From the NCBI GenBank assembly GCA_944381085.1, contig CALWJX010000093.1, forward strand, positions 11,240 through 75,239: a stretch of 64,000 nt of DNA, in the 5' to 3' direction. Of this stretch, positions 39,678-56,654 are shown one piece after another. The notes under the pieces were generated by a model. It did not search any database, had not been told where the DNA came from, and worked only from the letters and a program-made list of their open reading frames with translations. Within the stretch, counting starts at the first letter, position 1. Each line of letters opens with the position of its first letter. Position numbers and translations under genes: made by a program. This stretch comes from an uncultured Clostridia bacterium. GTDB taxonomy: Bacteria; Bacillota; Clostridia; Oscillospirales; CAG-272.

Positions 39678-40094
39678 ATGGGAATGATTGTAAAACATAA
39701 TATGCTGGCTGCCGACAAGGAAGCATTTCGCCTTCTCATCTACTGCTCGGCGCCACCAAATATAAGAGACAGTGCAGTCTCGATAAACAAGTTGATGGCA
39801 GAAAAATTATTGCAGCTCAAGCCTTCACGAAGAACGATGAGGATTGAAAAGTTATTCAATGAGGTCATTGACTCTCTACCGGAGAGATCAATCATTAAGG
39901 ACATAGATGTTCTATTCAATCCGGCATATAAAATCGATGTATTCAAGATGCTGACAACGGCTTGTAAACGAAAAAAGTTTGACATTATATGGTCAGGAAA
40001 ACTCGACAACAATACACTTGTCTACGGAGAAGAAGGGTTTCCTGACTATCACAAATATGAAATTGAAAACTATGACATCGTGTGTGTCGTATAA
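39678..40094 (+). CDS. Small protein at the BrxF position of a type 3 BREX locus. No intact Walker A visible.
   Basis: 138 aa, ends 14 nt before brxC. Assigned by position only. The region LLIYCSAPPNIRDS lies where a P-loop would be expected. Confidence 0.45.
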   Translation: MGMIVKHNMLAADKEAFRLLIYCSAPPNIRDSAVSINKLMAEKLLQLKPSRRTMRIEKLFNEVIDSLPERSIIKDIDVLFNPAYKIDVFKMLTTACKRKKFDIIWSGKLDNNTLVYGEEGFPDYHKYEIENYDIVCVV

Positions 40095-40108
40095 GCGGGA
40101 GGAACAAA

Positions 40109-43100
40109 ATGAAATACTCAGAATTGATCAGTTTTAATCCGATTGAGGATGTTATTCAGCTTATCACGGCTGACGATGCTGATAAAGCTCGTGAATATGT
40201 GAAGACCTATGTTATGTCTGACGCAATGGCTGATAGCCTTCAAGCTCCCGTTATTGATCAGCTTCAAATGGATGAAGTGGTTGACAACAAGGGTGTGCTT
40301 GTTGTCGGTAACTATGGTACCGGTAAGTCTCACTTGATGTCCGTCATTTCTGCAATAGCAAAAGACGCGGATAACTTGCAGTATCTTCAAAATAAAAAGT
40401 TCGCCAAAAACATGGAACCTATTGCCGGGAAGTTTGAAGTCCTTCGCATTGAAATCGGAGGCGTTACCATGTCGTTGCGTGAGATCCTCTTTGGCTTCAT
40501 TCAAGAGGATTTTGATGCTCGTGGAATTGATTACGATGTTCCCGATTTTGACACAGTAAAGGACAATAAAAAGCTCATCAAGGACATGATGATGGCGTTC
40601 AATGATAAATACCCGGACAAGGGATATTTGATTGTTGTTGACGAGTTTTTGTCTTACCTTACTTCTCGTGATGAGCGTGCTATCGTCCTTGATCTTGAGT
40701 TCTTCCGCGCATTGGGAGAAATGTGTTCAAAGTCTAATCTTCGCGTGATTTTCGGTGTTCAGGAAAAAGTCTTTGACAATCCTCGTTTCAGCTTTGTTTC
40801 TGACACACTCATGCATGTTAAGGATCGTTTCACGCAGATCATCATCACGAAGGAAGCAACATCGTATGTTGTTTCCGAGCGTATCTTGAAGAAGACTCCT
40901 GAGCAGAAAGCACTCATCAGAGCGCACCTTGAGAAGTTCTGTAATCTCTATACCGGTATGTCTTCTAAACTGGATGAGTTCGTTGATCTCTATCCGATCC
41001 ATCCGGCATATATTGATGTCTTCAATAAGATTTACCTGATTGAAAACCGTCATATTTTGAAGAATATCTCCTTGACTATCAAGGGCATATTCAACACCGA
41101 TGTTCCTGAGAATGCTCCCGGTATCATCTCTTTTGATAACTATTGGACTGCTATCAAGTCAAACGGCTTGCTTCGAAGTGATGTTACTATCAGCCGCGTT
41201 GTTAATGCCAGCCAGCAGCTCGAAGGTATCATCAATACATCTTTCCCGAAACCGGCATACAAGCCATTGGCGATCAAGATTATCTACGCATTGAGCGTAC
41301 ATCGTCTCACTACCAATGGTCTTGATGTTCAGTTTGGATTGACTGCTGAAAACCTGAAAGACGATCTCTGTCTGTATCTCATGATGCCTGAGCAGGATGC
41401 GGACTTCCTGCTTGGTGTTGTTAAGGCTACACTTCGCGACATCATGACCACAGTTTCCGGTCAGTTTATTATTTGCAACGAGGCAAACAATCAGTATTAC
41501 ATTGATGTAGATAAAGTTGTTGACTACGATGAGAAGATCAAGCAGAAAGCCTCTTTGATGGCTGACGGTGAACTTAACCGTTATTTCTATCAAGTGGTGT
41601 ATAGCTGCCTTGAGTGGGATAAGAAGCAGTATGTTTCTGGCTTCAATATCTACGAGCATGACCTGAATTGGGATTCTCACAATATCTTCCGTGAAGGTTA
41701 TCTGTTTATGGGGCTTCCCGGGGAAAGAAGCACAGCACAGCCGGAGCGTGATTTCTACCTTCACATTATGCCTCCCTATGGGAACTCCGGTGCATCGAGA
41801 CAGGACCTTGAGGACGAAGTGTACTTTTACTTCAAGTCAAGCAATGAGTTCCATGAGACAATTTCTCTCTATGCAGCTTCTTGCAGCTTGGCAGATATCA
41901 GTGAAGGTAAGGACAAGGATGCTTATCTCGCGAAGGCAAATATTCTCCGTAAAAAGCTGGTCAAGTATCTCAGCGAAAACAAGAATACTTGCTTCGATGT
42001 TGTATATAACAAAGAGCGCAAGCAGCTGATCGAAGTCTTAAAAGGACGATATAACCGCGATCTCACTTTCAATGACACCATTGACCTTGCTGCTTCTATC
42101 TGTCTGGATGGCTACTTCAATAAAATCTATCCGGACTGCCCAGTCATGAAAACAAAGATCACTCGTAAAAATATGGCTGACAACGCCCGTGCTGCTTTCG
42201 ACCATTTTGCCGGAAGAAAGACACAACAGTCCACCGCTATGTTGCAGAGCTTTGGTATTCTCGACGGGGACAAGATCCGTCCCGAAGGCTCTAAATTCGC
42301 TTCATATTATATCGATAAGGTTAAGGCTCTGCCGCAACAAGGTGTTCTCAACTTCTCTGATATGTTTGAGCAGCAAGGTTTGTATTGGCAGATCGACAAG
42401 AAGTTCAAGGTATGGCATATCTTTACGCCTATCATCTTCCTGTCAATGGTTTATGCTGGGTATGCAGTAATCACTTTGAAGAACGGCGAAACGATTACTG
42501 CGTCCTCCCTTGATAAAGTTCCGAAGACAAACGTTATGGACTTGTATGAGTTCAAGTATCTGTCCAAACCAGCACAGATTTCTATGGCTGAACTCAAAAA
42601 GCTGTTTGATGTCCTCGACATCAATCCTGCTCTTCTGGACAATCCGAATGATCGCGAAAAAGGCGTAGAAGCTTTGCTCAAGGCAGCTCAGGAACTTTGC
42701 AACAACTCCGTCCTGCTCGAAAGAAAACTGAATGACGGTTTTGAACTTTGGGGGGAGCCGCTTGCAAATCAGCAGCAGATCCAGATGATGAGAAATGCTT
42801 GCACTGCCGTTAAGAACGAGTTCAGCAATTACGGCGCAAGATTTAACACTCCTGCCAAGTTGAACAATTTCAGCCTGACATCTGAGGAAGTAGATGAACT
42901 TGCAAAGAAAATCGCTCTCTTGAAGCTCATCCCTGAGTATATTACTTTCAAGGCTGAGTGTTCTGCTGTTGTTACCTATATTTCCAGCATAGAGTTTATT
43001 GATCTCGGTGCCGCGCTGAAATCTGAGATTGAAAATGCAAAGGCTTCCTTCCGTTCTATCAGAGATGACATCATGGATGGTGTTACCGGTGAGGCTGCTG

Positions 43101-43801
43101 CGCAGAAGGTTTCCGCTGAGCTTGAGAAAATCAAGGATAAGTACATCGAGATTTACTTTGAGGAACACAAGAAAAAGAGACTGGGCATCGAAGATGCAAA
43201 GCGTAGAGGCAAAGTTCAGGAAAGTCTTGCTCTGAGCAATCTGAGAAAGCTGCGTACTATTGAAATCCTCTCTTCCGCGAAGCTCGGAGAGATCGAGAAT
43301 GACTTGGCATCTTTGAAGGTTTGCTACGATCTTACTCCCAATGAGATGAAGACCAATCCTATTTGTCCTCATTGTCGATACAGCCTTGAGGATAAGGCAA
43401 AGAATGTCTACGGTCAGCTTGATAACCTTGAGGATCGCATTGACGCCCTTGTTGCCGAATGGACAAAGCAGCTCATGGACACCATTACCGATCCAATTGT
43501 TCTAAGCCAGAAAGAGTATCTAAGCGCACAGCAGGCTAAGGTAATTGATGAGTTCATTGCTTCCGGCTCTCTGCCTCAGCGCGTGGATGACTTCTTTGTG
43601 AAGAGCATTCAGGCATTGCTCAAGAACTATGAGCCGGTTGTCATTGAGATTGAAGACCTTGTTCAAAAATTGGATGAGCTGCCGCCGCTGGATGAAATGA
43701 CATTCAAAGCGAAGCTGAACGATATTATCTCTGCCTACACGAAGGGCAAAGATGCTACGACACTGCGTATTGTTGTCAAAAGAAGAGAAAGCGAGGAATA
43801 A
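40109..43801 (+). CDS. brxC: BREX P-loop ATPase BrxC/PglY-like (about 1230 aa)
   Basis: Start re-called to ATG 40109 (GGGAGGA RBS). Walker A VVGNYGTGKSH, Walker B YLIVVDEF. Its size and position before the methyltransferase fit BrxC. Confidence 0.8.
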   Translation: MKYSELISFNPIEDVIQLITADDADKAREYVKTYVMSDAMADSLQAPVIDQLQMDEVVDNKGVLVVGNYGTGKSHLMSVISAIAKDADNLQYLQNKKFAKNMEPIAGKFEVLRIEIGGVTMSLREILFGFIQEDFDARGIDYDVPDFDTVKDNKKLIKDMMMAFNDKYPDKGYLIVVDEFLSYLTSRDERAIVLDLEFFRALGEMCSKSNLRVIFGVQEKVFDNPRFSFVSDTLMHVKDRFTQIIITKEATSYVVSERILKKTPEQKALIRAHLEKFCNLYTGMSSKLDEFVDLYPIHPAYIDVFNKIYLIENRHILKNISLTIKGIFNTDVPENAPGIISFDNYWTAIKSNGLLRSDVTISRVVNASQQLEGIINTSFPKPAYKPLAIKIIYALSVHRLTTNGLDVQFGLTAENLKDDLCLYLMMPEQDADFLLGVVKATLRDIMTTVSGQFIICNEANNQYYIDVDKVVDYDEKIKQKASLMADGELNRYFYQVVYSCLEWDKKQYVSGFNIYEHDLNWDSHNIFREGYLFMGLPGERSTAQPERDFYLHIMPPYGNSGASRQDLEDEVYFYFKSSNEFHETISLYAASCSLADISEGKDKDAYLAKANILRKKLVKYLSENKNTCFDVVYNKERKQLIEVLKGRYNRDLTFNDTIDLAASICLDGYFNKIYPDCPVMKTKITRKNMADNARAAFDHFAGRKTQQSTAMLQSFGILDGDKIRPEGSKFASYYIDKVKALPQQGVLNFSDMFEQQGLYWQIDKKFKVWHIFTPIIFLSMVYAGYAVITLKNGETITASSLDKVPKTNVMDLYEFKYLSKPAQISMAELKKLFDVLDINPALLDNPNDREKGVEALLKAAQELCNNSVLLERKLNDGFELWGEPLANQQQIQMMRNACTAVKNEFSNYGARFNTPAKLNNFSLTSEEVDELAKKIALLKLIPEYITFKAECSAVVTYISSIEFIDLGAALKSEIENAKASFRSIRDDIMDGVTGEAAAQKVSAELEKIKDKYIEIYFEEHKKKRLGIEDAKRRGKVQESLALSNLRKLRTIEILSSAKLGEIENDLASLKVCYDLTPNEMKTNPICPHCRYSLEDKAKNVYGQLDNLEDRIDALVAEWTKQLMDTITDPIVLSQKEYLSAQQAKVIDEFIASGSLPQRVDDFFVKSIQALLKNYEPVVIEIEDLVQKLDELPPLDEMTFKAKLNDIISAYTKGKDATTLRIVVKRRESEE

Positions 43802-43804
43802 TCG

Positions 43805-46396
43805 ATGGAAAAAAGAAAACTGACGAAGGAAGACATCGATAAAGTCCGTCATATAGAAGGATTCCCTATTGGAAGCGATGATGATATCATCGCCTTATCC
43901 GAAGCTCCATACTATACTGCTTGTCCGAATCCTTTTATCAACGAATTTCTTTCTGAATTTGGAAAATCTTATGACGAATCAACAGATGATTATCATAGAG
44001 AACCATTTGCCGCAGATGTAAGCGAAGGCAAAAGTGACATAATATATAATGTCCACAGCTACCACACCAAAGTTCCTCATAAGGCTATCATGCGTTACAT
44101 ACTCCATTACACTCAACCCGGGGATATTGTGTACGATAGCTTTGGTGGTTCTGGAATGACAGGCGTTGCAGCTCAAATGTGTGGTGATAGAGAAACCGTT
44201 ACTTCTCTTTTGAGTTCCTATTCTGACCTCGAAGAGCGTGTAGGGGCGAGAAAAGCAATTATCAGCGATCTTTCTCCCGCTGCAACATTCACCGCGCTTA
44301 ACTATAACTATTCTGTGAACACAAGCGAACTCAGAAACGCATGGGATCGGATTTATAGAAGCGCATTGGAGAATTATGGTTGGATGTTAGAAACCAATCA
44401 TTCGCATAAAGACAATTCTCCGTCATTGTTTTTACATGATCATGTGAAAGGCAGCATAAACTATTCCGTTTGGTCTGATGTCATGATATGTCCTGTGTGC
44501 GGAAAAGAGTTTGTGTTTTGGGACATTGCCGTGGATGAAAGCGCGGGGAAAGTCCGTGACAGAATGTATTGCCCTCACTGCAATGGAGAAATGTCAAAGC
44601 GTGAATGTGAAAAGTCAATGCATACTTATGTTGATGATATAACCGGAGAATTGGTATCTGCAATCAAGCAAGTTCCTGTGTTGATCAACTATACTTGGTG
44701 TGGGAAAAAATTTGATAAGAAACCAAATTCAGAAGATATTGCTCTGATAGAAAAGATAGAAGCACTCAAAGTTCCTTTCTGGTGTCCTTCTGACAGAATG
44801 TGCGAAGGAACAGAAAGTCGTAGAAATGACAAATATGGCATTAAGAATGTTCATCAGTTTTTTACGAAAAGAAACCTGATCCTCCTTGGCTACATTTTGA
44901 ACGAGGCAGATAAGGAGTCGCAACCTATCAAACACAGGATAATGTCAGCTATGAAAAGTTCGTTCTCATATGGAACGAAAATGATCAAAGTGAACATTGG
45001 GCGCTTGTTGAATGGCGGCGGTACTTTTGCTATGGGCGCAGTAAGTGGCACATTGTATATACCAAGCCTTATGGCAGAGCGCAATATTCTTGAAGCTATT
45101 GACAACAAAATTCAAAGTATCATTAAGCTCTACTCAACCGCCCAACTAAGTAAAAATGTATATATCAATACAGGATCCTCTTCCTGTGTGCCAAACATTC
45201 CAGAAAACAGTATCGACTATATCTTTACAGATCCTCCTTTTGGAGATAATTTGAACTACTCCGAATTGAATTTCATTTGGGAAGCATGGGGCAAAGTTTT
45301 CACTAATAACACTTCCGAAGCAATCATGAGTAAAACTCAACGCAAGGGGGTTGTTGAATACCAAGAGCTTATGACACAGTGCTTCTCTGAGAACTTCCGT
45401 ATTTTGAAGCCGGGAAGATGGATGACTGTCGAGTTTCATAACTCTAAGAACAATGTATGGAACGCAATCCAAGAGTCTTTAATGCGTGTAGGCTTCATTA
45501 TTGCAGATGTAAGAACTCTTGACAAAAAGCAAGGTAGTTTCAAACAAGTAACTACAACAACAGCTGTAAAACAAGACCTCGTAATTTCGGCATATAAACC
45601 AAAGGACGAGTTCAGGCAGAGATTCCTGCAAAACGCAGGGACAACAGAGACAGCTTGGGATTTTGTCAGACAACATTTATCGAACATTCCTGTTGTAGTA
45701 AAAAAAGAAGATAAAATCGAGCTTATCTCAGAGCGTCAGGGATTTTTATTGTTTGATAGAATGGTTGCATATCATATTATGCAAGGAATCGCAGTGCCGC
45801 TTGATGCTCCAGATTTCTACAAAGGGCTCGAGGACAGATTCCTAAAGAGAGACAATATGTATTTTTTGCCCGATCAGGTCAACGAATATGACATGGCACG
45901 CGCAACCTGTGATGTAGAGGCAATTCAATTCTCGCTGTTTGTTTCTGATGAAAAGTCTGCGATAGGTTGGTTGTACCAGCAGCTTGACGCAAACAGCGGC
46001 GATGGTCCGCAAACTTATCAGGATTTGATGCCTAAGTTCATGCAGGAATTGAAGGCAGTCGATAAGCGCGAAAAAATGCCTGAGCTTTCTGTCATCCTTG
46101 AAGAAAACTTCCTCAAGGACGAAGACGGTAAATGGTATATCCCGGACCTAACCAAGAGTGGCGATATTGCGAAGCTGCGTGAAAAGAACTTGCTCAAGGA
46201 GTTCCAAGAGTACCTGAATAGCAAGGGTAAGCTCAAGGTTTTCCGTTCCGAAGCAATCCGAGCTGGTTTTGCAAAGCTCTGGAAGGATAAGGACTACGCT
46301 GCCATCGTTGCGCTGGCAAATCGTCTTCCCGAAGAAACAATTCAGGAAGATCAGAACTTGCTCATGTATTACGACATTAGCTTGAGCAGAGTGTAA
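43805..46396 (+). CDS. pglXI: BREX type 3 DNA methyltransferase PglXI-like (N6/N4 amino-MTase)
   Basis: 863 aa. SAM motif VYDSFGGSGMTG (aa 109-120), catalytic DPPF (aa 476-479), and a CxxC...CxxC zinc ribbon (C229/C232/C256/C259) between them. Confidence 0.8.
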   Translation: MEKRKLTKEDIDKVRHIEGFPIGSDDDIIALSEAPYYTACPNPFINEFLSEFGKSYDESTDDYHREPFAADVSEGKSDIIYNVHSYHTKVPHKAIMRYILHYTQPGDIVYDSFGGSGMTGVAAQMCGDRETVTSLLSSYSDLEERVGARKAIISDLSPAATFTALNYNYSVNTSELRNAWDRIYRSALENYGWMLETNHSHKDNSPSLFLHDHVKGSINYSVWSDVMICPVCGKEFVFWDIAVDESAGKVRDRMYCPHCNGEMSKRECEKSMHTYVDDITGELVSAIKQVPVLINYTWCGKKFDKKPNSEDIALIEKIEALKVPFWCPSDRMCEGTESRRNDKYGIKNVHQFFTKRNLILLGYILNEADKESQPIKHRIMSAMKSSFSYGTKMIKVNIGRLLNGGGTFAMGAVSGTLYIPSLMAERNILEAIDNKIQSIIKLYSTAQLSKNVYINTGSSSCVPNIPENSIDYIFTDPPFGDNLNYSELNFIWEAWGKVFTNNTSEAIMSKTQRKGVVEYQELMTQCFSENFRILKPGRWMTVEFHNSKNNVWNAIQESLMRVGFIIADVRTLDKKQGSFKQVTTTTAVKQDLVISAYKPKDEFRQRFLQNAGTTETAWDFVRQHLSNIPVVVKKEDKIELISERQGFLLFDRMVAYHIMQGIAVPLDAPDFYKGLEDRFLKRDNMYFLPDQVNEYDMARATCDVEAIQFSLFVSDEKSAIGWLYQQLDANSGDGPQTYQDLMPKFMQELKAVDKREKMPELSVILEENFLKDEDGKWYIPDLTKSGDIAKLREKNLLKEFQEYLNSKGKLKVFRSEAIRAGFAKLWKDKDYAAIVALANRLPEETIQEDQNLLMYYDISLSRV

Positions 46397-46418
46397 TATA
46401 AGAAAGTGAGGTTATTTT

Positions 46419-47558
46419 ATGTCTGAAGCAAGCATCAAGTGCTACATGGGTAGTGAAGAAAAAGAAATAACGCAGGAAACGCTCCAATCAGAGATGGCAA
46501 AGTATCTACAGATGGATAACCTCAGCTTTTTGGTAGGAGCCGGTTGCTCCAGCAATATTGTTGATAAGAAGGAAACAGGCATCCCGCTTATGAAAGGACT
46601 TTACAATTCCTTTTTTGAAGAAAAGCCTGATTTCGCGGTTGCAGGTGTTAAGTTCAATGGTAAATATGACAGCAATCTTGAGAAAATGCTTGAAGCTATG
46701 GGTGCAATAGCTGTTGCAAATCAAGTCAAAGAGATTGAACCTGATATTGATGCAAAAATCAAAGAGATCAGAGATTTTATACGCGACAAGATTAAGGCTG
46801 GGCTTGAGAGTGAAGAAGTGAAGGAGATTTATAAATCGTTCTATGCAAAAATCACTCAACGCTCAAGAAAGTCTCCGATAAGCATTTTCACAACGAACTA
46901 TGATTTGTTTAACGAGATCGCCTTGGATGAGCTTGGATTTCCATATAACAATGGATTTTCCGGATCGTACAGACGGAAATTTAATCCAATCAGCTACAAC
47001 TATATGTATGTTGAGAACATGAACCTAACCAGGGATGTGTGGGAGCGTGTATCCTCTTTCTTTAACCTTGTAAAGCTCCATGGCTCTATTTCGTGGCTCT
47101 GCAAGGATGACGAGATATGGGAACGACATTATTCGGACATTCACGACAGCGAGACGGTGATGATCTATCCTACTCCGATGAAAGACCGCACGACGCTTAT
47201 GGAGCCATATTCCGATCTGTTTCGTACAATGGAAAACCGTATCGTCCAAAAGAACAGCGTTCTTGTTGTTCTCGGATATAGCTTTGGTGATGACCATATC
47301 AATCGCATCATTTTGAATGGCTTGGCGGTACCGTCCTTCCGTCTGGTTGTTTTCGGCTCTGGTGACAACATAACCAAGCTAACCAAACTTGGAGACTCGC
47401 GCATCACAGTTTACAATTCCGAAGATAAGATTCACTACTTCGGAAACTTTGTCGAAAAAGCTCTGCCTCCCATCCATCCGGATGTAGACGAAGAATTGAA
47501 GCTGAAACCCGTCTCTGCAAGCATAGCAGAATTTGAGGAGATGAAGCTTGATGAATAG
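46419..47558 (+). CDS. SIR2-like (SIR2_2 family) NADase-type defence protein
   Basis: FLVGAGCSS, IFTTNYDLF, VKLHGSISW and VLGYSFGDDHINRII are the hallmark SIR2_2 blocks. Paired with HerA. Confidence 0.85.
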   Translation: MSEASIKCYMGSEEKEITQETLQSEMAKYLQMDNLSFLVGAGCSSNIVDKKETGIPLMKGLYNSFFEEKPDFAVAGVKFNGKYDSNLEKMLEAMGAIAVANQVKEIEPDIDAKIKEIRDFIRDKIKAGLESEEVKEIYKSFYAKITQRSRKSPISIFTTNYDLFNEIALDELGFPYNNGFSGSYRRKFNPISYNYMYVENMNLTRDVWERVSSFFNLVKLHGSISWLCKDDEIWERHYSDIHDSETVMIYPTPMKDRTTLMEPYSDLFRTMENRIVQKNSVLVVLGYSFGDDHINRIILNGLAVPSFRLVVFGSGDNITKLTKLGDSRITVYNSEDKIHYFGNFVEKALPPIHPDVDEELKLKPVSASIAEFEEMKLDE

Positions 47559-49443
47559 CCGAAGCATTGGAAAACTAACATCGGTGAGCCAGCGCGGAAT
47601 CATTGCCGAAATCTACTCTGGATTAGGAAACTACATCAGCACAAATGATGGAGTTCGGTTTGTCGGTGAGGTAGGGTCGTATGTTTCTATCTACGATGTT
47701 AACCGTACTATAATCGGAGAAATAACCGGCGTTGAAGAAAAACCGCAGTTCAAAAACGCCGAACTGAATAAGCCAAACAGCAGCCGCTTGGCAACTATCA
47801 ATCTTGTTGGGGAGATCGTTTCAGAACGGTTTTACTTTGGTGTGTCAAAAATGCCTCTCGTATTTTCTGATGTCAACATCATTTCGCAAAACGACCTTAG
47901 AATAATGCTTGAGGTTACAGACGATGAAACTGTTGTAGATAAGGAGAATGGTAAAACTCGTGCTGAATTGCTGAAGCTTGGCACATCGGTCATTTTCCCT
48001 GATTACTCCGTGAAGGTAAACATAGACAAGTTCTTTGGCTTTCATTTTGCCGTGTTTGGAAACACAGGTGCCGGAAAATCGAATACCATAGCCACAATCA
48101 TGCAGGAGATCTTTCGCAAGAAAGACTATGCAGCTAAAGGTGCTAAATTTGTCTTTATAGATTCCAACGGTGAGTATGCAAAGGCATTTTCGGAGATTTC
48201 GCAAGTAAACGAGACAGTTCAAGCTAAAGAGTTTGTCGCCTCGGATGACGATTTGGTAGATAATCGCCTTCAGATACCCGTGTGGGCATTGAGTGCTGAT
48301 GACTGGGCTATTCTTCTTCACGCATCAGAAAAAACACAAATTCCTATACTTAAGAGGGCAATAGATATAGCAAAGAGTTTCTTTGATGAAACCACAAGCA
48401 ATACTGATGTAAGAAATCATATACTCGCAAGTTCCCTTGTTGGAGTGTTTTGCAGTTCGGATTCGTCCCCGTCCAAGGGAGATAAGCTGATTAGTATTCT
48501 ATCCACCTTTATGACGGATGAAATAAGCCTTGATACGCAAGTCGGAAAGGTACAATATCAAGATGGACGAGAACGAAAAGAAACAGATGGTACATTAAGA
48601 GCTGCCATTAAGGTCGGCTTTGGAAATATGTTGTCGCCTGAAACTGTGATAAAGTATTTGCAAAAGTTTATTAAGTCGGATATTGCTGATAGCCTTTCAA
48701 GCTCAAAAGCTGTCCCTTATTCACTGCAACAGTTTTCAGAGGCAGTGCAGTTTGCGACCTTATATGAAGGGAGTATCAGCTCTCAAAGGATACAAGAGTA
48801 TACCTCAACACTGGTAACTCGGCTTCAGTCCCTTCAAGATGGTATTCAAGGGAAAATACTTGTTAAGACTGAATATGATTCAATAGACAGCTTTATCCAG
48901 AGTGTTCTTGGCATACATCAGATTGTCAATATCGATATTAGCTCTTTAGATGACGCTTCCGCTGAAGTGGTGGCAAAAGTCTTTGCCAAACTTCTCCTTG
49001 ATTATTTGCGAAAACGAGAGAAAAAAGCCGATATGCCAATAAATTTTGTGATTGAGGAGGCTCATCGTTTCATACGCAACGAAACGAATTACGGGCCTCT
49101 CGGATACAACATCTTCGAGAGAATTGCAAAAGAAGGGCGTAAATATGGTTTGCTTTTGGGCATATCATCTCAGCGTCCGAGTGAATTGTCTAAAACTGTA
49201 GTTTCGCAATGCAGTAACTTCATCATTCATAGGGTACAGAACCCAGATGACCTTCAGTATATTTCGAGGATGGTTCCCTATGTCAATCAGGGTATGATAG
49301 ATCGATTAACATACCTTCAGACTGGTCATGCGCTTGTTTTCGGTACGGCGATTAATCTGCCAACGCTTACGAGGTTTGATGAAGCATCGCCTAAACCTGA
49401 TAGTGAAAATGCAAAGATTTCGGAACGATGGTATGTTGAATAA
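47551..49443 (+). CDS. HerA-like (DUF87) hexameric ATPase, partner of SIR2
   Basis: ATG 47551 overlaps the SIR2 stop by 8 nt. Walker A FGNTGAGKSN, Walker B NFVIEEAHRF, and the GISSQRPSELSKTVVSQCSNFIIHRV block. Confidence 0.85.
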   Translation: MNSRSIGKLTSVSQRGIIAEIYSGLGNYISTNDGVRFVGEVGSYVSIYDVNRTIIGEITGVEEKPQFKNAELNKPNSSRLATINLVGEIVSERFYFGVSKMPLVFSDVNIISQNDLRIMLEVTDDETVVDKENGKTRAELLKLGTSVIFPDYSVKVNIDKFFGFHFAVFGNTGAGKSNTIATIMQEIFRKKDYAAKGAKFVFIDSNGEYAKAFSEISQVNETVQAKEFVASDDDLVDNRLQIPVWALSADDWAILLHASEKTQIPILKRAIDIAKSFFDETTSNTDVRNHILASSLVGVFCSSDSSPSKGDKLISILSTFMTDEISLDTQVGKVQYQDGRERKETDGTLRAAIKVGFGNMLSPETVIKYLQKFIKSDIADSLSSSKAVPYSLQQFSEAVQFATLYEGSISSQRIQEYTSTLVTRLQSLQDGIQGKILVKTEYDSIDSFIQSVLGIHQIVNIDISSLDDASAEVVAKVFAKLLLDYLRKREKKADMPINFVIEEAHRFIRNETNYGPLGYNIFERIAKEGRKYGLLLGISSQRPSELSKTVVSQCSNFIIHRVQNPDDLQYISRMVPYVNQGMIDRLTYLQTGHALVFGTAINLPTLTRFDEASPKPDSENAKISERWYVE

Positions 49444-49458
49444 AGGAGTATTTTGATT

Positions 49459-52131
49459 ATGTACAATGTCGGAGATTTGGTGTTTGATACCGCCACCGGT
49501 GCAAGTGTCCAAGTGTTGGAAAAGATTGAAGCATGGGGCTATGTGTCCTATCGCGTCTTCAATCTTGCTACCGGAGCTGTTTATAAGGCAACGGGAGAAC
49601 AACTGAATATGGATGGCGGGACCAATACATACGACGAAAACTATCTCCGGTATGTTACACTCTTATCAAAGATCCGCAACGAGACTGCAGGAGGACTCCT
49701 GTCATCTCTCGCAAGCGGAGTCATTCCGCTTCCTCACCAGCTCCATGTTCTGAATAGGGTAATGGAGAATAACACCATCCGCTACATTCTTGCTGATGAA
49801 GTGGGGCTTGGTAAAACTATCGAAGCCGGAATGGTCATCAAAGAGTTAAAAGCTCGTGGATTGGTAAAGCGTATTCTGGTAGTTTGTCCTACCGGTCTTG
49901 TTACTCAGTGGGCGGCAGAAATGCAGGACAAGTTTCATGAGAAGTTCAATGTAATTCTTCCGTCTGACTATGATACTATTCGCCGTCTGACCGACAACGA
50001 GGATGTCTACGGACAATACGATCAGGTCATATCTCCGATGGACTCTATCAAGCCCATCGAGCGCCACGCCGGTTGGACAGAAGAGCGCGTCGAAAAATAC
50101 AACGAGGAACGAATCTATTCCATTATCAATAGTGGATGGGATTTGATTGTTATTGATGAGGCACACAGAGTTGCCGGATCAACCGGCGAAGTTGCGCGAT
50201 ACAAGTTGGGTTATCTGCTCTCTCAGGCAAGCCCATATCTACTGCTGCTTTCTGCAACGCCCCATAACGGCAAAACTGAGCCTTTCTTGAGGCTTGTTCG
50301 CCTTCTTGACGAAGAAGCCTTCCCTAACACAAAATCAATAGTAAAGGAACAAGTTGCGCCTTACCTGATTCGTACAGAAAAGCGTGAGGCAATAGACAAT
50401 AACGGCAACAAACTTTTCAAAAATAGAATTACGCATCTCGTGGAAATGTCTTGGGACGAGCGTCACACCATGCAGAAGGAACTCTACAAGCTGGTTACAG
50501 CTTATGTCTCGAAGACCTATAACAAAGCGCAACGCAATCGAAAAAAGAATATGTGCTTGATCTTCCTGCTAATCATCATGCAGCGCATGGTAACAAGCAG
50601 CACAACAGCGGTACGCCAAAGCCTTGAAAGAAGACTCGATATTCTCAAGTCTCAAAGTACGCGCATCGGCTCTCTTACCGAAGAAGATTTGGCTGAACTT
50701 GATATTGAGGACGGTGTGGAAGAAGCTCTTGAAGCAATTTCTCTTGATTTGGATGAGGAAATATCAGAGCTTGAGAACATCATTTCCATTGCAAAGCAAG
50801 CTGAGTTTCAGCACCCAGATGTCAAAATTGAACATCTGCTCAATACGATAGATGAAATAATCGGGGAGGACCGCGATCAGAAGATAATCATCTTTACTGA
50901 GTTCGTTGCCACTCAGCAATACCTTGAGCGCATCCTTACAAGTAACGGGTACACTGTATCTACCCTCAATGGCAGTATGACAATCGACGAAAGGAATCTT
51001 GCTCTCAAGGATTTCCGAGATTGCGCTAACATATTTATCTCTACTGATGCCGGTGGAGAAGGCTTGAACTTGCAGTTTTCCAATATTATCATCAATTACG
51101 ATCTTCCATGGAATCCCATGAAGATTGAGCAAAGATGTGGACGAGCTGACCGTATCGGGCAAAAACGCGATGTTCATATTTACAATTTCATCATCGGAGA
51201 TACTGTTGAAAACCGTGTTCGTCAAGTTCTCGAAGAGAAGCTATCCGTTATTTTTAAGGAAATGGGCGTTGACAAATACTCTGATGTTCTGGACAGCGAA
51301 GTTGCAGAATGTGACTTCACGGATGTATATATGCGCTCAATCAGCCATCCAAGCAAGATTGCTGAATCACTTTATCCTGTCGAGGCAGAAATGAAACAGC
51401 AACTTGCTAATGCAAAGAAATATAAGGATGTAATCCGTGAAGAAAAAGACCTAACGACGCTCGTGGGCAGCGAATCTGATTTTGATGTTGAAGAAGCGTT
51501 GCGTATGGTTTTGACATACTATGATCGCTGGCAAGGAGAGCAACTTAGCCTGTTTGATCAAATTGCCATAAATGATGAGAAAGTAACGAAGCACCTGAAT
51601 GTGGACATTATGCAGGATCGCTTCTCGCCAATACTTTCCGTCGGAATAAAGAACTTCCCTAATGAGGCTGGTTATTTTATGCTCTGGGAGCTGTCATTGT
51701 CCGATAATGATGCAGATAAAAGAATCGTTCCTATATTTGTCAACAACAACTTTGTTCTGCGCCCTATGGCTGGAAAACGGATAATGGATGTATTTCTTGA
51801 TCCAAACTCAAAATTGACTGTGGGTAGCAGAGCAAATATCTCAAATGATGAGTATGAGCATCTTGAGAAGATGTGTATGGAGTTCGCATATGACACATTT
51901 GTTGATCTTAAAGAAAAGCAGCTTAAGCGAAATCAGGAAAGCTACGACAAGTATATGTATGCTTTGTGCCTGAGAATAGAAGCGGCACAGCAAATTGGTA
52001 TTGAGAATATACGGAAAGCCCGGTTGAAAAGATTGGACGAGGAAAAGCGTTCTATCGAAGAAACCTATATTAAAGGACAAAAAGTATTTCCTGACTTCCG
52101 CTTAGTTCTTCTTGCTGGATTGGAGGCTTAA
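49459..52131 (+). CDS. brxHII: SNF2-family helicase, BrxHII-like
   Basis: Start re-called to ATG 49459 (AAAGGAG RBS). Has ADEVGLGKTIEAG (motif I), VIDEAHRV (motif II), and a helicase-C region (STDAGGEGLNLQ...QRCGRADRIGQ). Confidence 0.8.
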   Translation: MYNVGDLVFDTATGASVQVLEKIEAWGYVSYRVFNLATGAVYKATGEQLNMDGGTNTYDENYLRYVTLLSKIRNETAGGLLSSLASGVIPLPHQLHVLNRVMENNTIRYILADEVGLGKTIEAGMVIKELKARGLVKRILVVCPTGLVTQWAAEMQDKFHEKFNVILPSDYDTIRRLTDNEDVYGQYDQVISPMDSIKPIERHAGWTEERVEKYNEERIYSIINSGWDLIVIDEAHRVAGSTGEVARYKLGYLLSQASPYLLLLSATPHNGKTEPFLRLVRLLDEEAFPNTKSIVKEQVAPYLIRTEKREAIDNNGNKLFKNRITHLVEMSWDERHTMQKELYKLVTAYVSKTYNKAQRNRKKNMCLIFLLIIMQRMVTSSTTAVRQSLERRLDILKSQSTRIGSLTEEDLAELDIEDGVEEALEAISLDLDEEISELENIISIAKQAEFQHPDVKIEHLLNTIDEIIGEDRDQKIIIFTEFVATQQYLERILTSNGYTVSTLNGSMTIDERNLALKDFRDCANIFISTDAGGEGLNLQFSNIIINYDLPWNPMKIEQRCGRADRIGQKRDVHIYNFIIGDTVENRVRQVLEEKLSVIFKEMGVDKYSDVLDSEVAECDFTDVYMRSISHPSKIAESLYPVEAEMKQQLANAKKYKDVIREEKDLTTLVGSESDFDVEEALRMVLTYYDRWQGEQLSLFDQIAINDEKVTKHLNVDIMQDRFSPILSVGIKNFPNEAGYFMLWELSLSDNDADKRIVPIFVNNNFVLRPMAGKRIMDVFLDPNSKLTVGSRANISNDEYEHLEKMCMEFAYDTFVDLKEKQLKRNQESYDKYMYALCLRIEAAQQIGIENIRKARLKRLDEEKRSIEETYIKGQKVFPDFRLVLLAGLEA

Positions 52132-52133: not shown

Positions 52134-53597
52134 ATGTTTGGAAGCTATCTCTATGAGCAGTCAGCAGCTCAGTACACAAATAGAATATTGATTATTGACT
52201 GCGACGGCTTAGGAGATCGCATTCAACTCGAAAAGGTATTTGAGGATCATGGCTTTATAGTGTTACCGTACATTGATGATCTTTATTTCCGCGTTGAGCA
52301 GCATGACAAACTCAGTTGTGAATCAGAGAAATATGCCGTAATTGTCAAACCAAGCCAATACATTCCCTACGACATATATCATGAGTTTACCCCGTTCAAA
52401 CTTACATATGCTAAGTTGTTCCCCAAACTCAGTGCTGCTGTACTGAAAAATCGGAATGATATAAACCTTGATCTGCTGGTCATGGCATACAAAAATTGTT
52501 TTTCTGATTTGTCCGTGAGTCAGTTGACTGAACAGTTTATCCAACGAAAAGTCTATTCACGAGAAAACATTCAAATATATCTTGATATTGCTGTCAAAAA
52601 GCTGTCTGAAAAATGCTCCACGGCAAGCAGTTATCAAGATTGGTTTGCCATCGCAGAAGATAAAGCTGCCATCGATGTCATGGCAACGGAATATGATGTG
52701 TCTGCTGATACAGATCGGTTTCATGCGTTATTTGTTGACTTTATTGAAAGCAATTTCGGAAAATTGTCTTCCAAAATTGATCGTGCTACGCCTGTAACTG
52801 TCAGCAGAGCTATGGAATACATCAAAGATCATAGCGACAAGTTTGTAATTATTGTCATGGACGGTATGTCTGAATTTGATTGGGAAATAATCAGCCGGTC
52901 ATTCAAAGGATTGGTATATGACAAATCCAACATATTTGCAATGATACCTACTACAACATCAATTTCAAGACAATGCTTGCTCTCTAATAAATATCCGAGC
53001 CAGCTTATGGAGCCGTGGAAGCAAAGCAAGGAAAAGCAAGAGTTCTTTGATTGCGCTAACGGTTTAGGTTTTACTAATGAACAGATTGATTATGTTAGAG
53101 GATACGAAGTTAGTTTCAGCTCCTTTGTGAAATGTGGCGCAGTAATTATAAACGATGTTGATGATATGGTTCATGGTCAGCAGCAAGGACGAATTGGAAT
53201 GTTTAATGACATCTCTGTTTTGGCGAAGCAAGGGCAACTTGCAAGTTTGACGAAGCGATTGCTTAACGCTGGTTACGATGTATATATCACAGCAGATCAC
53301 GGAAACACGCCATGTGTTGGAATGGGAAAACTCATGAAAACCGGCGTAGAAATAGAAACCAAGAGCCGCAGAATGCTCGTTCTCAAAGACTTTGCGGATA
53401 AAGATAAGCTGCTTGAACAGTATTCGCTTATTGATTATCCGAAGTATTACTTGAGTAAAGAGTTTGATTACCTCATTTGTGGCGTTGGATGCTCCTTTGA
53501 TGCAAAAGGAGAAGCAGTAATGTCGCATGGTGGCATTACGATAGATGAGGTAATTGTTCCATTCATAAAGGTAAAGGCGGTAGACAATAATGGCTAA
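52134..53597 (+). CDS. pglZ: PglZ-domain (alkaline-phosphatase superfamily) protein, short form (487 aa)
   Basis: FVIIVMDGMSEFDWE, YITADHGNTPC and MSHGGITIDEVIVPFI match the conserved PglZ metal-site blocks. Confidence 0.8.
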   Translation: MFGSYLYEQSAAQYTNRILIIDCDGLGDRIQLEKVFEDHGFIVLPYIDDLYFRVEQHDKLSCESEKYAVIVKPSQYIPYDIYHEFTPFKLTYAKLFPKLSAAVLKNRNDINLDLLVMAYKNCFSDLSVSQLTEQFIQRKVYSRENIQIYLDIAVKKLSEKCSTASSYQDWFAIAEDKAAIDVMATEYDVSADTDRFHALFVDFIESNFGKLSSKIDRATPVTVSRAMEYIKDHSDKFVIIVMDGMSEFDWEIISRSFKGLVYDKSNIFAMIPTTTSISRQCLLSNKYPSQLMEPWKQSKEKQEFFDCANGLGFTNEQIDYVRGYEVSFSSFVKCGAVIINDVDDMVHGQQQGRIGMFNDISVLAKQGQLASLTKRLLNAGYDVYITADHGNTPCVGMGKLMKTGVEIETKSRRMLVLKDFADKDKLLEQYSLIDYPKYYLSKEFDYLICGVGCSFDAKGEAVMSHGGITIDEVIVPFIKVKAVDNNG

Positions 53598-54297
53598 AAC
53601 AGTAGGATTTGCTTGTAGTATAAAGCTACAATGGATAAAAAGAACAATACAACTTCTTGAAGAAGGTCATGACAAAGAGAGCTTCAAAAAAGAGCTAAAT
53701 GATTATTTGAGCTTTGAAATTGAAGGACCGACCAGACTTCGAAAGACAAGAGAAATCTTGATGAATATGTGGTATTACGAGCTGGATGATGTGTCTCCTG
53801 CGCGGAAAGAAGCTCTTTCTTTAATAGAAAAATACCCTGAATATATCGTACCAATAAGCCTATGCATACTCTATTTGGCTTATCCTGTTGTTGCAGATGT
53901 ATGTAAGTTTATGGGCAGAATGTTTGAAGCACATGATGAAATCACAAATGCAATGTTGAAGCAGAAGCTCTTTGATGAATGGGGTGAGCGCGGTACACTG
54001 GAAGCAACCAGCCGTCGCGTAACTCTGACACTCAAAGAACTTGGTCTCATCAAAGATGCTTCTCGTACAAGATACATCTTGACCAAACAGGAAATTACGA
54101 ATACCGAAGTTATCAATTTTGTCATTGCAACGATTATGAAAATTGATGGTGGCAGCTATTACTCCTTTAGTGAGCTTCATGATTTTGTACTTCTATTCCC
54201 GTTTGATTACAAAGTGAGCAAAGAAGAACTTATTACAAACAATCGGTACACCGTAAGCACATTTGGTGGCGAAGTATCAGTTTCCCTCCGCGAATAA
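53590..54297 (+). CDS. BrxA-position protein (DUF1819-like by context)
   Basis: 235 aa. Overlaps the pglZ end by 8 nt and is the terminal gene of the operon, as brxA is in type 3 BREX. The family was not verified. Confidence 0.5.
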   Translation: MAKTVGFACSIKLQWIKRTIQLLEEGHDKESFKKELNDYLSFEIEGPTRLRKTREILMNMWYYELDDVSPARKEALSLIEKYPEYIVPISLCILYLAYPVVADVCKFMGRMFEAHDEITNAMLKQKLFDEWGERGTLEATSRRVTLTLKELGLIKDASRTRYILTKQEITNTEVINFVIATIMKIDGGSYYSFSELHDFVLLFPFDYKVSKEELITNNRYTVSTFGGEVSVSLRE

Positions 54298-54300
54298 AAA

Positions 54301-54343
54301 AGAGCCTCAGCCGACACCCACAATGGGCATCGACTGAGGCTCT
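54301..54343. terminator. Long hairpin between convergent operons. An A-run lies 5' on the plus strand, which gives a T-tract for the minus-strand operon.
   Basis: AGAGCCTCAG(CCGA)...(TCGA)CTGAGGCTCT with an inner CCCA/TGGG pairing, preceded by AAAAA. Confidence 0.65.
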
Positions 54344-54472
54344 TCGCACTTCATAGGGGCTTTAACTTAGTGGCTGAAATCGACACTTATCCGCACAGTA
54401 ACGGAGGAAGACTGCCATATGGGAAAACATACGGGGGTGCTTTCTTGCGCAGCTCCCTGGGCGAAAAAACCG

Positions 54473-54670
54473 TCATTTTCGACCTTTATCCTGACAGTAA
54501 ACCACATCCTCAGACCGCTTTGAGAAATAACGGGAACAGGCAACAACTTCGGTGCGGAAGCTCTGCTTGCAATCATGGATGCAGCGGCGGCACTGGTCGT
54601 TGTACTTTCGTCTTCCGTCCGTGCCTAAGAAGAATGCCCACTCATCCTTCCATTTCCGGCTGCGGCTCAT
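54473..54670 (-). CDS. Small Cys-rich basic protein (65 aa)
   Basis: Its ATG overlaps the stop of the ArdA-fusion gene (TTATGA). Sequence ...CRRCIHDCKQSFRTEVVACSRYFSKRS. Confidence 0.6.
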   Translation of the reverse strand: MSRSRKWKDEWAFFLGTDGRRKYNDQCRRCIHDCKQSFRTEVVACSRYFSKRSEDVVYCQDKGRK

Positions 54671-56424
54671 AATTCCAGATCCCCCTTGCGCTCCTTGTGC
54701 GGCACGGGCTTTTCCTTTGGAGGCTCGGACTTAGATGCTTTAAGCCTGTCCATGATGGAGGACTTTTCGCCTTTCTCAGCGGACTTGTCCTCTTTGGGAC
54801 CGTTGTTGATAATTCCATCAATCATGCCGTAGTCATCCTCCATAGACATCTCGGCTGCCTTCAGCGGATTCTCTCGTTCCAGAGCGGCAATCCATTCGAC
54901 CTTTTCAACGCCGAAAATGCCGCCCTGAGCTGTATGAGCTTTGAGTTCGCTGGCATCCATGACCATGCCCTCCGTGTCATCGCCGTAAAGACGATAGACG
55001 GTGCAGGACTGCATGACCTTGGCAGCAGCTTCCTCTCTCATTGGCAGCATACCGCCCCACGAATAACCATACTCCTTCATCTCATCAACAGAGATGCTGT
55101 CATCCGGCATCCGATCAACAGGCATGACCTCCTGATGAAGCAGATCAACGGTATGCTCGTCAAAGCCGTCGTAGACATCAGGGATTGCCAGCTTGCCGTA
55201 ATTATCGACGATGATACAAGCAGCTTCATCACCGTAGGTGTCATGCTCCATGAGCCAAAAGGAGTGACCGTCAACCTCCATGTGGTCAATCGTGTGCCAT
55301 GTTCCAATGTGACCGGCAACAGCCAGACCGGAGGTGTCCATATTCATTTCAAAGTCCTTCTGTTCTGCTGCCTGATGCTTCTGCTGCTCTTCGGAAATCA
55401 TCGGAATAGCAACAATCTTATCACCGAGCTTTGCAAACTGTTCAGGCGTTTTGAAGTGATCGGTGAACTGCTGCATCAGCTCAGGTGTCAGAGAGCCGAA
55501 GCTGTCATCGGTCAGACCGACCACCATGAAAGTTCCGGCAACGATGTCATAGATGTCTCCGTCATCATCGCGTAGAGCGCGGTTGAGAGGTAAGCCTTCC
55601 AGCTTTGCCTCTTCGTTGCAGACAATGGCAACCGGCTCTTCAAACGGGTACACTGCCTGAATGTAGCCGCCGATCTCATGCTGCAATGACTCAAGACCGG
55701 AGTCAATCTCTTTGGCATAAGGCTCTTTTCCCGGCTCAACGACGAGGACAGTGATTGTGCTGTCATGCTCAGGCTCACTGCCTGATCCGGTGATACGGTA
55801 CTCATCGGGAATATCCTCCCGTGTTCCGTCAAAGTAGTGATTCCAGCCGTCTCCAGTATTGCGGATGTAGCCTTCGTCGGTGAATTTGCCGCTCTCATCC
55901 ATTGCAATGTCGCGTCCGAAACGCTCATAGTCAATGTAGTTGGCAAGCGGTCCGAGTTCTTTTTCGGAGTAGATACCGGCATCGTGAACATAGTAGTAGC
56001 CGAGATCGGATTCATCGTGAATATCGGGGATGAAGTCATAGCAGTCCAGATTGTAGGTCACGTTAATGAGATCGTCAATGTCACTGACCTCATCGCAGCC
56101 AGCCTCCATGATCGCTACGAACTTTTCCTGTTCCCACTTGTCCATCTCGTCGATACGGGACGCAAGGTAGTTGAGCTTATCGAGGCTTTCATACTCACCG
56201 AGCATATCATAAACGCCGTGTACGGGACATTCGTAGTCGGTGATAAACCATTCCTCATAGACCTGACCGAACTCATCCGTCGAGCCGATACCGATTCGCT
56301 CAAAGACCTTCTGCATTTCCTCTTCGGTAGTCGGGAACTTCACCCATTCACCGACAAGCTGACCTTCGTTGTATTTGCCGAGGTTGGTGACAAACGCTTC
56401 AAAGTTTCCATCTAATACGGGCAT
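54667..56424 (-). CDS. ardA: ArdA antirestriction domain fused to DUF3846-like and further C-terminal domains
   Basis: The N-terminus AFVTNLGKYNEGQLVGEWVKFPTTEEEMQKVFERIGI... is ArdA-like. The middle block VLVVEPGKEPYAKEIDSGLESLQHEIGGYIQAV...CNEEAKLEGLPLNR resembles DUF3846 (from memory). Confidence 0.75.
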   Translation of the reverse strand: MPVLDGNFEAFVTNLGKYNEGQLVGEWVKFPTTEEEMQKVFERIGIGSTDEFGQVYEEWFITDYECPVHGVYDMLGEYESLDKLNYLASRIDEMDKWEQEKFVAIMEAGCDEVSDIDDLINVTYNLDCYDFIPDIHDESDLGYYYVHDAGIYSEKELGPLANYIDYERFGRDIAMDESGKFTDEGYIRNTGDGWNHYFDGTREDIPDEYRITGSGSEPEHDSTITVLVVEPGKEPYAKEIDSGLESLQHEIGGYIQAVYPFEEPVAIVCNEEAKLEGLPLNRALRDDDGDIYDIVAGTFMVVGLTDDSFGSLTPELMQQFTDHFKTPEQFAKLGDKIVAIPMISEEQQKHQAAEQKDFEMNMDTSGLAVAGHIGTWHTIDHMEVDGHSFWLMEHDTYGDEAACIIVDNYGKLAIPDVYDGFDEHTVDLLHQEVMPVDRMPDDSISVDEMKEYGYSWGGMLPMREEAAAKVMQSCTVYRLYGDDTEGMVMDASELKAHTAQGGIFGVEKVEWIAALERENPLKAAEMSMEDDYGMIDGIINNGPKEDKSAEKGEKSSIMDRLKASKSEPPKEKPVPHKERKGDLEL

Positions 56425-56437
56425 TCACATCCTCCTT

Positions 56438-56653: not shown

Positions 56654-56654
56654 A

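Follow-up and report, generated by a model that had tools for sequence, protein, structure and literature searches.

We analysed a 64,000-nucleotide (nt) stretch of DNA from an uncultured Clostridia bacterium (hereafter the window), which holds a type 3 bacteriophage exclusion (BREX) operon with a SIR2-HerA gene pair in its middle. Performing PADLOC, Pfam, NCBIfam and PDB searches, we read the gene order as BrxF, BrxC, PglXI, SIR2, HerA, BrxHII, PglZ and BrxA. The plus strand from 39.3 to 54.3 kb is a single tightly packed gene array, in which the SIR2-HerA cassette lies between pglXI and brxHII. All six BREX genes (brxF, brxC, pglXI, brxHII, pglZ and brxA) match their corresponding PADLOC models and form one co-oriented cluster in the canonical order, a type 3 BREX gene order common to about 90 related loci. 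The features of the array, with protein lengths in amino acids (aa), are these:

39348 to 39376, plus strand: promoter-like element TTGAAA-17-TATAAT plus extended TG; with 11 of 12 matches it is the best sigma-70-like hit in 37-56 kb
39409 to 39621, plus strand: HTH_26 gene (Cro/C1-type, 70 aa; PF13443, E = 3e-20)
39678 to 40094, plus strand: brxF (PADLOC BrxF, E = 1e-19)
40082 to 43801, plus strand: brxC, a DUF6079 / BrxC-PglY ATPase (PADLOC 1338 bits, Pfam 1565 bits)
43805 to 46396, plus strand: pglXI methyltransferase (PADLOC and Pfam), stop codon TAA at 46394-46396
44184 to 45210, plus strand: hypervariable centre of pglXI, the presumed target-recognition domain, unalignable in every comparison
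46397 to 46418, plus strand: left cassette junction, 22 nt, whose sole content is the Shine-Dalgarno sequence GTGAGG (46406-46411), 7 nt before the SIR2 ATG
46419 to 47558, plus strand: SIR2 NADase gene, 379 aa (PADLOC SIR2 E = 1e-98; PF13289; PDB 8yhx, 8j4u, 8w9l)
47551 to 49443, plus strand: HerA ATPase gene, 630 aa (PADLOC HerA E = 4e-173; PF01935; PDB SIR2-HerA complexes 8yho, 8j4u)
49444 to 49458, plus strand: right cassette junction, 15 nt, with the brxHII Shine-Dalgarno sequence AAGGAG (49443-49448) overlapping the HerA stop codon
49459 to 52131, plus strand: brxHII SNF2-type helicase (PADLOC and Pfam)
52134 to 53597, plus strand: pglZ, 487 aa, the short form typical of the lineage (PADLOC and Pfam; equal length in all relatives)
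53590 to 54297, plus strand: brxA (PADLOC BrxA, E = 9e-40)
54300 to 54345, no strand assigned: terminator-like hairpin directly after brxA, a 20-bp stem followed by a T-run

The catalytic motifs of both cassette genes are preserved. Aligned to PDB 8yhx, SIR2 retains intact TTNYD and HGS motifs and ends in a TAG stop codon at 47556-47558. HerA, which ends in TAA at 49441-49443, retains its Walker A motif (GNTGAGKS), and its EEAH stretch, aligning to the same motif in a solved HerA, was read as Walker B. The pair's relationship to the proteins of known structure is distant (E = 1e-41 to 1e-20, with partial coverage). Equivalence to the characterised SIR2-HerA systems is not guaranteed, because the NCBIfam equivalog scores lie below their cut-offs (126 versus 500 bits and 193 versus 800 bits).

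An earlier note on this DNA had described a 22-nt left gap with GTGAGG, a HerA ATG inside the end of SIR2 and a 15-nt right gap with a ribosome-binding site, and we confirm these coordinates. The two genes overlap by 8 nt (ATGAATAG), with the HerA ATG at 47551, and a Shine-Dalgarno-like GAGGAG stands upstream of this ATG at 47535-47540, within the SIR2 coding sequence. SIR2, HerA and brxHII each have their own Shine-Dalgarno sequence ahead of the start; for brxHII an in-frame TTG at 49453 is an alternative, and the 890-aa length of the homologues fits the ATG at 49459. The note also proposed translational coupling. The overlap permits it, and HerA translation is probably coupled to SIR2 in this way, but the overlap is no adaptation to BREX: it appears inherited from stand-alone ancestors, because overlaps of 8 and 11 nt occur in the stand-alone pairs of L003 and L006, respectively. 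The stoichiometric co-expression claimed in the same note does not follow from the arrangement. Co-transcription does not fix stoichiometry, and SIR2-HerA, which protects as a two-gene unit, forms a complex of ~1.1 MDa with 12-14 SIR2 and 6 HerA subunits (PMC11472057).

Scanning for consensus sites, we found no promoter-like or terminator-like site at the left or right cassette junction, and over 37-56 kb promoter-like matches stand at chance level (35 observed versus 34.3 expected). Folding of the junction RNAs is no more stable than that of shuffled sequences (z = 0.69, -0.38 and -0.04), and the only hits of an Rfam scan, a tRNA and a pemK motif, lie far from the cassette. Repeats on the two sides of the cassette are short and imperfect, and do not exceed the background level. 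A 19-nt, 84% inverted repeat (46382-46400 / 49651-49669) was considered as a scar and rejected, as the same 4.1 kb contains 47 comparable pairs and the second arm of the repeat sits 200 nt inside brxHII. A search of PLSDB plasmids and of complete E. coli genomes for near-identical copies of 46000-50000 returned no match. The claims that the cassette lacks regulatory signals of its own, and that its junctions lack inverted repeats, att-like repeats or scars, are borne out by these null results. Base composition, the check that the earlier note had put forward, likewise revealed no discontinuity. The GC content of the cassette is 0.415-0.422 and that at third codon positions (GC3) 0.40-0.48, within the spread of the BREX genes (0.386-0.439 and 0.35-0.50, respectively), and the codon-usage distance from the cassette to the BREX genes (0.125) resembles that from BrxC to the other BREX genes (0.128). 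Most simply, the cassette, which has no room for a promoter or terminator of its own, would be co-transcribed within the BREX operon.

Judged by its consensus, the site at 39348-39376 is likely the operon promoter. The HTH_26 gene is probably the operon regulator, a candidate BREX-3 regulator distinct from the WYL-type BrxR; it also stands upstream of brxF in the BREX-3 loci L024-L031, L115 and L116. In L116 an additional WYL gene follows brxA. The terminator-like hairpin at 54300-54345 closes the BREX operon; it was scored on the minus strand, and its palindromic stem could work both ways. Pfam detects an N6_N4_Mtase domain in pglXI, whose methylation activity is a prediction.

We compared the pglXI-brxHII junction among relatives collected by a HerA genome scan (22 loci), from close BrxHII homologues and by a metagenome scan (80 further BREX-3 loci). 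Beside a BrxHII 89% identical to that of the window, the junction holds a CD-NTase and a Cap15-like effector; beside one 83% identical, from Acidaminococcus, it is empty, the pglXI stop and the brxHII start being 21 nt apart. The spacing between PglXI and BrxHII was 15-42 nt in 33 loci and ranged from 113 to 4,549 nt in 50 others. Counting distinct BrxHII backgrounds, the junction is empty in 30 (~40%) and filled in 42 of the 72. PADLOC and Pfam sort the inserts into about 15 families. The commonest is a type I cyclic oligonucleotide-based antiphage signalling system (CBASS) with a cyclase and a 2TM effector. The remainder comprise type II CBASS (HNH-SAVED effector, cyclase and E2), Kiwa, Gabija, a single-gene OLD nuclease, a Schlafen/AlbA_2-HATPase-wHTH protein, PDC-S06 (AAA_13, PrrC-like), a PDC-M36-like cargo, PDC-M48, a GmrSD/HEC-06-like enzyme, SIR2-HerA and several proteins without a match in any library. 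Double cargo occurs in two loci, as Kiwa with Gabija and as CBASS-II with OLD. One cargo cluster (C3) had seemed 'SIR2-like' through a PADLOC match to the N-terminal part of a pAgo model; this was rejected, as Pfam shows Schlafen/AlbA_2, HATPase_c_4 and wHTH domains. Among the surveyed inserts we saw only defence-type genes, and no transposases or metabolic genes.

The 43 distinct cargo arrays all point in the direction of the operon, with every cargo gene of at least 90 aa on the plus strand, a left gap of at most 25 nt and a median right gap of 10 nt. Scarless tight packing is the rule for this slot and is not special to SIR2-HerA. The brxF-brxC, brxHII-pglZ and pglZ-brxA junctions were never filled (n = 54-87). 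The brxC-pglXI junction is filled in 12 of 67 loci, and that of the window is empty (3 nt). Its cargo is a YhcG/DUF1016 PD-(D/E)XK nuclease in 10 loci (e.g. L065 4957-5961) and, in the two others, proteins of 239 aa (L038 6687-7406) and 154 aa (L041 6978-7442) with no match in Pfam, PADLOC or NCBIfam.

Several cargos of the pglXI-brxHII slot were also without annotation. No Pfam, NCBIfam or PADLOC match was found for those of L099 (6885-7622, 245 aa), L106 (1971-2756, 261 aa), L076 (954-1256, 100 aa) and L101 (5136-5342, 68 aa); that of L060 (8427-9935, 502 aa) had no Pfam or NCBIfam match and only a weak PDC-M36A match in PADLOC. By guilt-by-embedding, these five are candidate new defence genes. 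In L051 (466-1909) the Schlafen-like cargo is split in two open reading frames (236 and 307 aa) and looks like a decaying cassette, and the short inserts (113-339 nt) in L079, L101, L110 and L076 may be remnants. The empty slots of 40-42 nt (L053-L055, L059, L068, L072 and L073) belong to one sub-clade with an extra pglXI codon, and their spacer carries a small hairpin-forming TGCAGT...ACTGCA between pglXI and brxHII.

The content of the slot turns over rapidly. It requires at least 32 state changes on a 72-tip BrxHII neighbour-joining tree, compared with about 40 for shuffled labels, and unrelated cargos stand beside BrxHII proteins that are 98-99.7% identical. Three operons that carry SIR2-HerA (L001), PDC-S06 (L087) and CBASS-II (L096) illustrate this. 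Their DNA is 96-98% identical over brxF-brxC and over brxHII-pglZ-brxA; the last ~650 nt of pglXI, up to the stop codon, are 92-100% identical in each 60-nt segment, and the same level of identity resumes from about codon 3 of brxHII. Comparing the flanks beside SIR2-HerA with those beside PDC-S06 and CBASS-II, we found no cargo-specific changes in the BREX genes. The second codon of brxHII (ATG-TAC in the window and L001, ATG-TTT in L087) was considered as a breakpoint and set aside, being too little to define one. Unrelated cargos occur even in operons whose DNA, the pglXI 3' half and the slot apart, is 95-98% identical, and in near-identical operon pairs the divergent block spans the pglXI centre through the cargo. 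Therefore, the pglXI 3' half and the slot make up one recombination-active diversity region.

An exchange can be seen directly in the window. From 46295 to about 50810 on the plus strand, a 4.5-kb tract is 100% identical to L032, with zero mismatches; it spans the last 100 nt of pglXI, the entire cassette and the first ~1,350 nt of brxHII. To its left we counted 32-66 mismatches per 200 nt (16-33%), and to its right the sequence is a mosaic with 0-14 mismatches per 200 nt (about 0-6.5%). The synonymous divergence (dS) between the window and L032 is 0 for the cassette versus 0.06-0.16 for BrxC, BrxHII, PglZ and BrxA. The tract is the imprint of a recent homologous recombination in which the cassette moved along with its homology arms. 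The pglXI segment at 44184-45210 cannot be aligned even with L032, whose DNA is 92-100% identical on either side; this variability presumably reflects swapping of target-recognition domains directly upstream of the slot. Analysing third-codon-position conservation in 74 distinct loci, we found no att-like or conserved DNA signal at the slot borders, where the values (0.48-0.49, against 0.35-0.48 elsewhere) were judged not to indicate greater conservation.

A deeper exchange is suggested by the comparison with L001, which the HerA genome scan recovered with the same BREX-3 plus SIR2-HerA architecture. SIR2 is 90% identical in protein to that of L001, compared with 43-72% for the BREX proteins. 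Purifying selection alone was considered as the cause of this identity and is ruled out by dS and third positions: dS is 0.93 for SIR2 and 1.78 for HerA, with third-position identities of 65% and 52%, while the BREX genes are saturated (third-position identity 37-44%). The identity is partly due to a younger ancestor. Because cassette dS is below that of the saturated BREX genes, the cassettes of the window and L001 share a younger ancestor than their host operons do. Together, the L032 tract and the lower cassette divergence from L001 are why we read the scarlessness as a mark of allelic exchange by homologous recombination, and not of age in this operon.

Performing the HerA scan, we also recovered the stand-alone relatives of the cassette. 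Eighteen of its other loci have no BREX genes in the available sequence and mostly hold full SIR2-HerA pairs (L019 and L020 give a partial HerA match only). In the stand-alone loci (L003-L021 and L117) SIR2 is 51-74% identical to that of the window and HerA up to 71%; the closest have housekeeping or mobile-element neighbours and intergenic spacers of ~300 nt, and the 74%-identical SIR2 homologue adjoins an integrase. All align full-length to the embedded copies, with no domains added or lost. Embedded SIR2 homologues span 72-100% identity, and those at 92, 82, 78, 78 and 72% all lie at the same BREX-3 junction. Two further loci of the scan are short contigs. L002 shows SIR2-HerA followed by brxHII, a partial fit to the architecture of the window, and L022 (1-3026) fuses HerA residues 85-293 to BrxHII residues 311-731. 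L022 1-3026 and L023 1-175 join sequence of ~27.1-28.9 kb of the window, its tRNA/integrase end, to HerA and pglXI 3' sequence, respectively; this reflects either chimeric assembly or variants of the element with a deletion.

The phylogeny that the earlier note had called for, of SIR2 and HerA against stand-alone systems, gave a divided answer. In a neighbour-joining analysis of SIR2+HerA, a single deep clade comprises most embedded pairs, and a second embedded group falls among stand-alone pairs. The SIR2-HerA lineage has thus long been resident in the BREX-3 slot pool, which it has possibly entered or left more than once. This much of the note's 'old, operon-integrated acquisition' stands; old residence in the window operon is not supported, and the presence of the cassette in any given operon is labile. 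The argument from missing scars to age fails, as the 43 cargo arrays are equally seamless, slot content changes at least 32 times over 72 tips, and the L032 tract lies in this very cassette.

We conclude, with a probability of roughly 0.75, that the window carries an intact SIR2-HerA abortive system in a polymorphic BREX-3 slot, with alleles exchanged by homologous recombination and a probably autonomous action. The cassette (46419-49443) would be a complete NAD+-depleting abortive-infection system with intact catalytic motifs in the pglXI-brxHII cargo slot, having lost its own flanking regulatory DNA, as opposed to the ~300-nt spacers of its stand-alone relatives. A long transcript, running from the promoter upstream of HTH_26/brxF to the terminator after brxA, would express it, and the 8-nt overlap would couple HerA translation to that of SIR2. 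In the population, the slot is either empty or taken by one, occasionally two, of about 15 or more unrelated defence cassettes, and homologous recombination through the pglXI 3' and brxHII 5' flanks would swap these alleles scarlessly between BREX-3 operons. SIR2-HerA would then act alone, as a second, abortive layer that shares the promoter, regulator and mobility of BREX and, it seems, is no BREX subunit. Comparative genomics makes this autonomy the most likely state, because stand-alone relatives are full-length, ~40% of the slots are empty, the other cargos are unrelated and self-sufficient, and the BREX genes carry no cargo-specific changes. Several points weigh against this conclusion. 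The promoter scan relied on consensus sequences, so an internal promoter in pglXI or the cassette is possible. Many surveyed loci are metagenome contigs, some of them chimeric (L022 and L023), and both the BrxHII and SIR2+HerA trees are simple neighbour-joining trees without support values. In addition, the model covers the swapping of cassettes and leaves the first entry of a new cassette into the slot unexplained.

The tight placement of the cassette between a methyltransferase and a helicase, together with a deep SIR2-HerA clade found only at the BREX-3 position, could also mean that SIR2-HerA is the killing arm of BREX, licensed by BREX recognition of unmethylated DNA through contact with BrxC, PglZ or BrxHII. 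The earlier note had suggested this, and how BREX stops phage is unsettled. However, a killing arm would hardly be missing from 30 of 72 relatives or be replaced in the rest by about 15 unrelated, self-contained systems, and the BREX genes next to it would not be expected to stay 96-98% identical in DNA between L001 and L087 or L096, with no change specific to the cargo. The stand-alone relatives, with no BREX nearby, lack no sensor domain. Moreover, characterised SIR2-HerA systems detect phage proteins and DNA ends unaided, and an E. coli subtype is triggered directly by phage SSB and Gp5.9 in combination with DNA ends (PMC13434337). We consider licensing the least probable of the explanations. 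The Gp5.9 trigger bears differently on the idea of a backup role, in which the embedded cassette would be set off once a phage has disabled BREX, in the manner of PrrC/EcoprrI, PARIS or Gabija/Ocr: T7 Gp5.9 is an anti-RecBCD protein (PMC13434337), many slot cargos belong to types that sense anti-restriction proteins (Gabija, OLD and the PrrC-like AAA_13), and embedded systems of this kind have published precedent (10.1101/2024.01.29.577857, PMC12707154). On the other side, no anti-BREX trigger of SIR2-HerA is known, the CBASS and Kiwa cargos have no known link to anti-restriction sensing, and, again, no cargo-specific change is seen in the BREX genes beside SIR2-HerA; for the embedded GmrSD-like BrxU and the Salmonella PARIS, independence from BREX or inactivity in the assays used has been reported (PMC12707154, PMC11341690). 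Such a backup role is unlikely, if the best placed among the alternatives.

A bolder proposal makes the pglXI-brxHII junction a functional 'socket', in which the plugged abortive modules (SIR2-HerA, CBASS, Kiwa, Gabija, OLD and others) are gated by the BREX state or guard it, cargo and PglXI target-recognition domain are exchanged together, and the unannotated cargos of 245, 261, 100 and 502 aa are new defence genes; taken as a whole, we find it doubtful, a shade more so than the backup role. Finally, the junction might simply tolerate insertions as a 'genomic sink', a hypothesis discussed in 10.1101/2024.01.29.577857, so that cassettes ride along with a mobile BREX and are co-expressed without benefit to the host. 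The frequent empty slots, the split Schlafen-like gene of L051 and the presumed remnants of 113-339 nt would suit such hitchhiking. Against it, nearly all cargos are intact and co-oriented with spacers trimmed to the size of a ribosome-binding site, they are exclusively of defence type, and SIR2 is under strong purifying selection (dN 0.054 and dS 0.93 versus L001). Hitchhiking is thus very improbable, though a little less so than licensing, and an autonomous SIR2-HerA in an exchangeable slot is the reading we keep.

A promoter-less defence cassette nested in BREX is an already documented pattern. Payne et al. described defence systems nested in BREX, DISARM, type I restriction-modification and Hma operons, 96.7% of them in the same orientation, proposed co-regulation, and defined the PDC and HEC families from embedded genes (10.1101/2024.01.29.577857). 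In the survey by Went et al., ~7,000 of 9,000 loci had genes between pglX and pglZ, with BrxU and PARIS as the commonest known systems (PMC11341690), and a 2026 Nucleic Acids Research survey listed 'backup' nuclease effectors in BREX loci, including Schlafen, OLD, Gabija and PARIS (PMC12839542). The cassette resembles the embedded systems of Payne et al.: it is self-contained and lies between genes of another defence system in the same orientation, the host system occurs without the insert (the 30 empty backgrounds) and the insert without the host (L003-L021 and L117), and the slot cargos PDC-S06, PDC-M36, PDC-M48 and the HEC-06-like enzyme belong to families defined there. Unlike in these three surveys, the host system here is a type 3 BREX carried by mobile elements of Clostridia from gut and rumen, and the main texts of 10.1101/2024.01.29.577857, PMC11341690 and PMC12839542 do not mention SIR2-HerA or CBASS as BREX cargo. 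Our comparison adds the near-exclusive use of one type 3 BREX junction, a very fast turnover and a directly visible recombination tract.

Several characterised systems share part of this arrangement. Like the stand-alone SIR2-HerA systems (Nezha; PDB 8yhx/8yho, 8j4u/8su9; PMC11472057, PMC11514289, PMC13434337), the window pair has SIR2 first and HerA second, often overlapping, with the same motifs; unlike them, it lacks its own promoter or terminator region. PARIS in the Salmonella type 1 BREX and BrxU in the pEFER BREX are likewise co-oriented second systems, for which layered or complementary immunity was proposed (PMC11341690, PMC12707154). However, these lie in type 1 BREX, between pglX and pglZ or beside brxC, and their chemistry is that of a tRNA nuclease or type IV restriction, whereas the window cargo is a predicted NADase. 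The slot also recalls integron cassettes and the defence hotspots of P2/P4 phages and satellites, which offer a fixed site, interchangeable promoter-less co-oriented cargos and an external promoter. Unlike in integrons, we found no recombination repeats (attC-like) at the borders and no integrase adjoining the slot, the only integrase lying where the mobile element ends, at a distance of 18 kb, and the exchange resembles ordinary allelic homologous recombination. PrrC in the EcoprrI type IC restriction-modification locus is, similarly, an abortive effector encoded within a modification-based defence operon. PrrC is kept inactive through physical association with EcoprrI until the phage peptide Stp frees it, whereas nothing suggests a comparable coupling for the window SIR2-HerA.

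The BREX operon is itself the cargo of a mobilisable or conjugative element integrated at a tRNA-Ser, which also encodes a tyrosine integrase, a relaxase, ArdA- and ArdC-like anti-restriction genes and a topoisomerase. The GC content of the operon is ~0.42 versus ~0.51 for the carrier element. The features of the element are as follows:

27073 to 27161: tRNA-Ser (CGA), start of the element
29007 to 29080, minus strand: pemK RNA motif (Rfam)
32723 to 33760: Macro-domain protein, element cargo
33793 to 34419: chloramphenicol acetyltransferase, element cargo
34478 to 35986: ImpB/UmuC-type polymerase, element cargo
within 54667 to 62169, minus strand: anti-restriction genes directly downstream of BREX (an ArdA-DUF3846-LPD18-DUF4316 polyvalent protein and an ArdC-N/DUF3849 protein)

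The tyrosine integrase follows the tRNA-Ser on the minus strand, and the region that holds both (27073-28473) is likely the left end of the integrated element. A MutS_I-like protein and the topoisomerase come after the anti-restriction genes, also on the minus strand of 54667-62169, and the same downstream neighbours occur in L023 and L024.

In summary, a single BREX-3 junction serves as a high-turnover slot for about 15 or more defence cassettes, beside a hypervariable methyltransferase specificity domain. Because slot alleles swap by homologous recombination, the absence of scars is uninformative on the age of a cassette. Several of the unannotated cargo genes in the slot are candidates for new defence systems, and the slot variants make up a natural, near-isogenic set of operons in which cooperation between embedded systems and BREX could be tested. 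The slot also suggests a simple design, in which immune modules would be swapped under one regulator.

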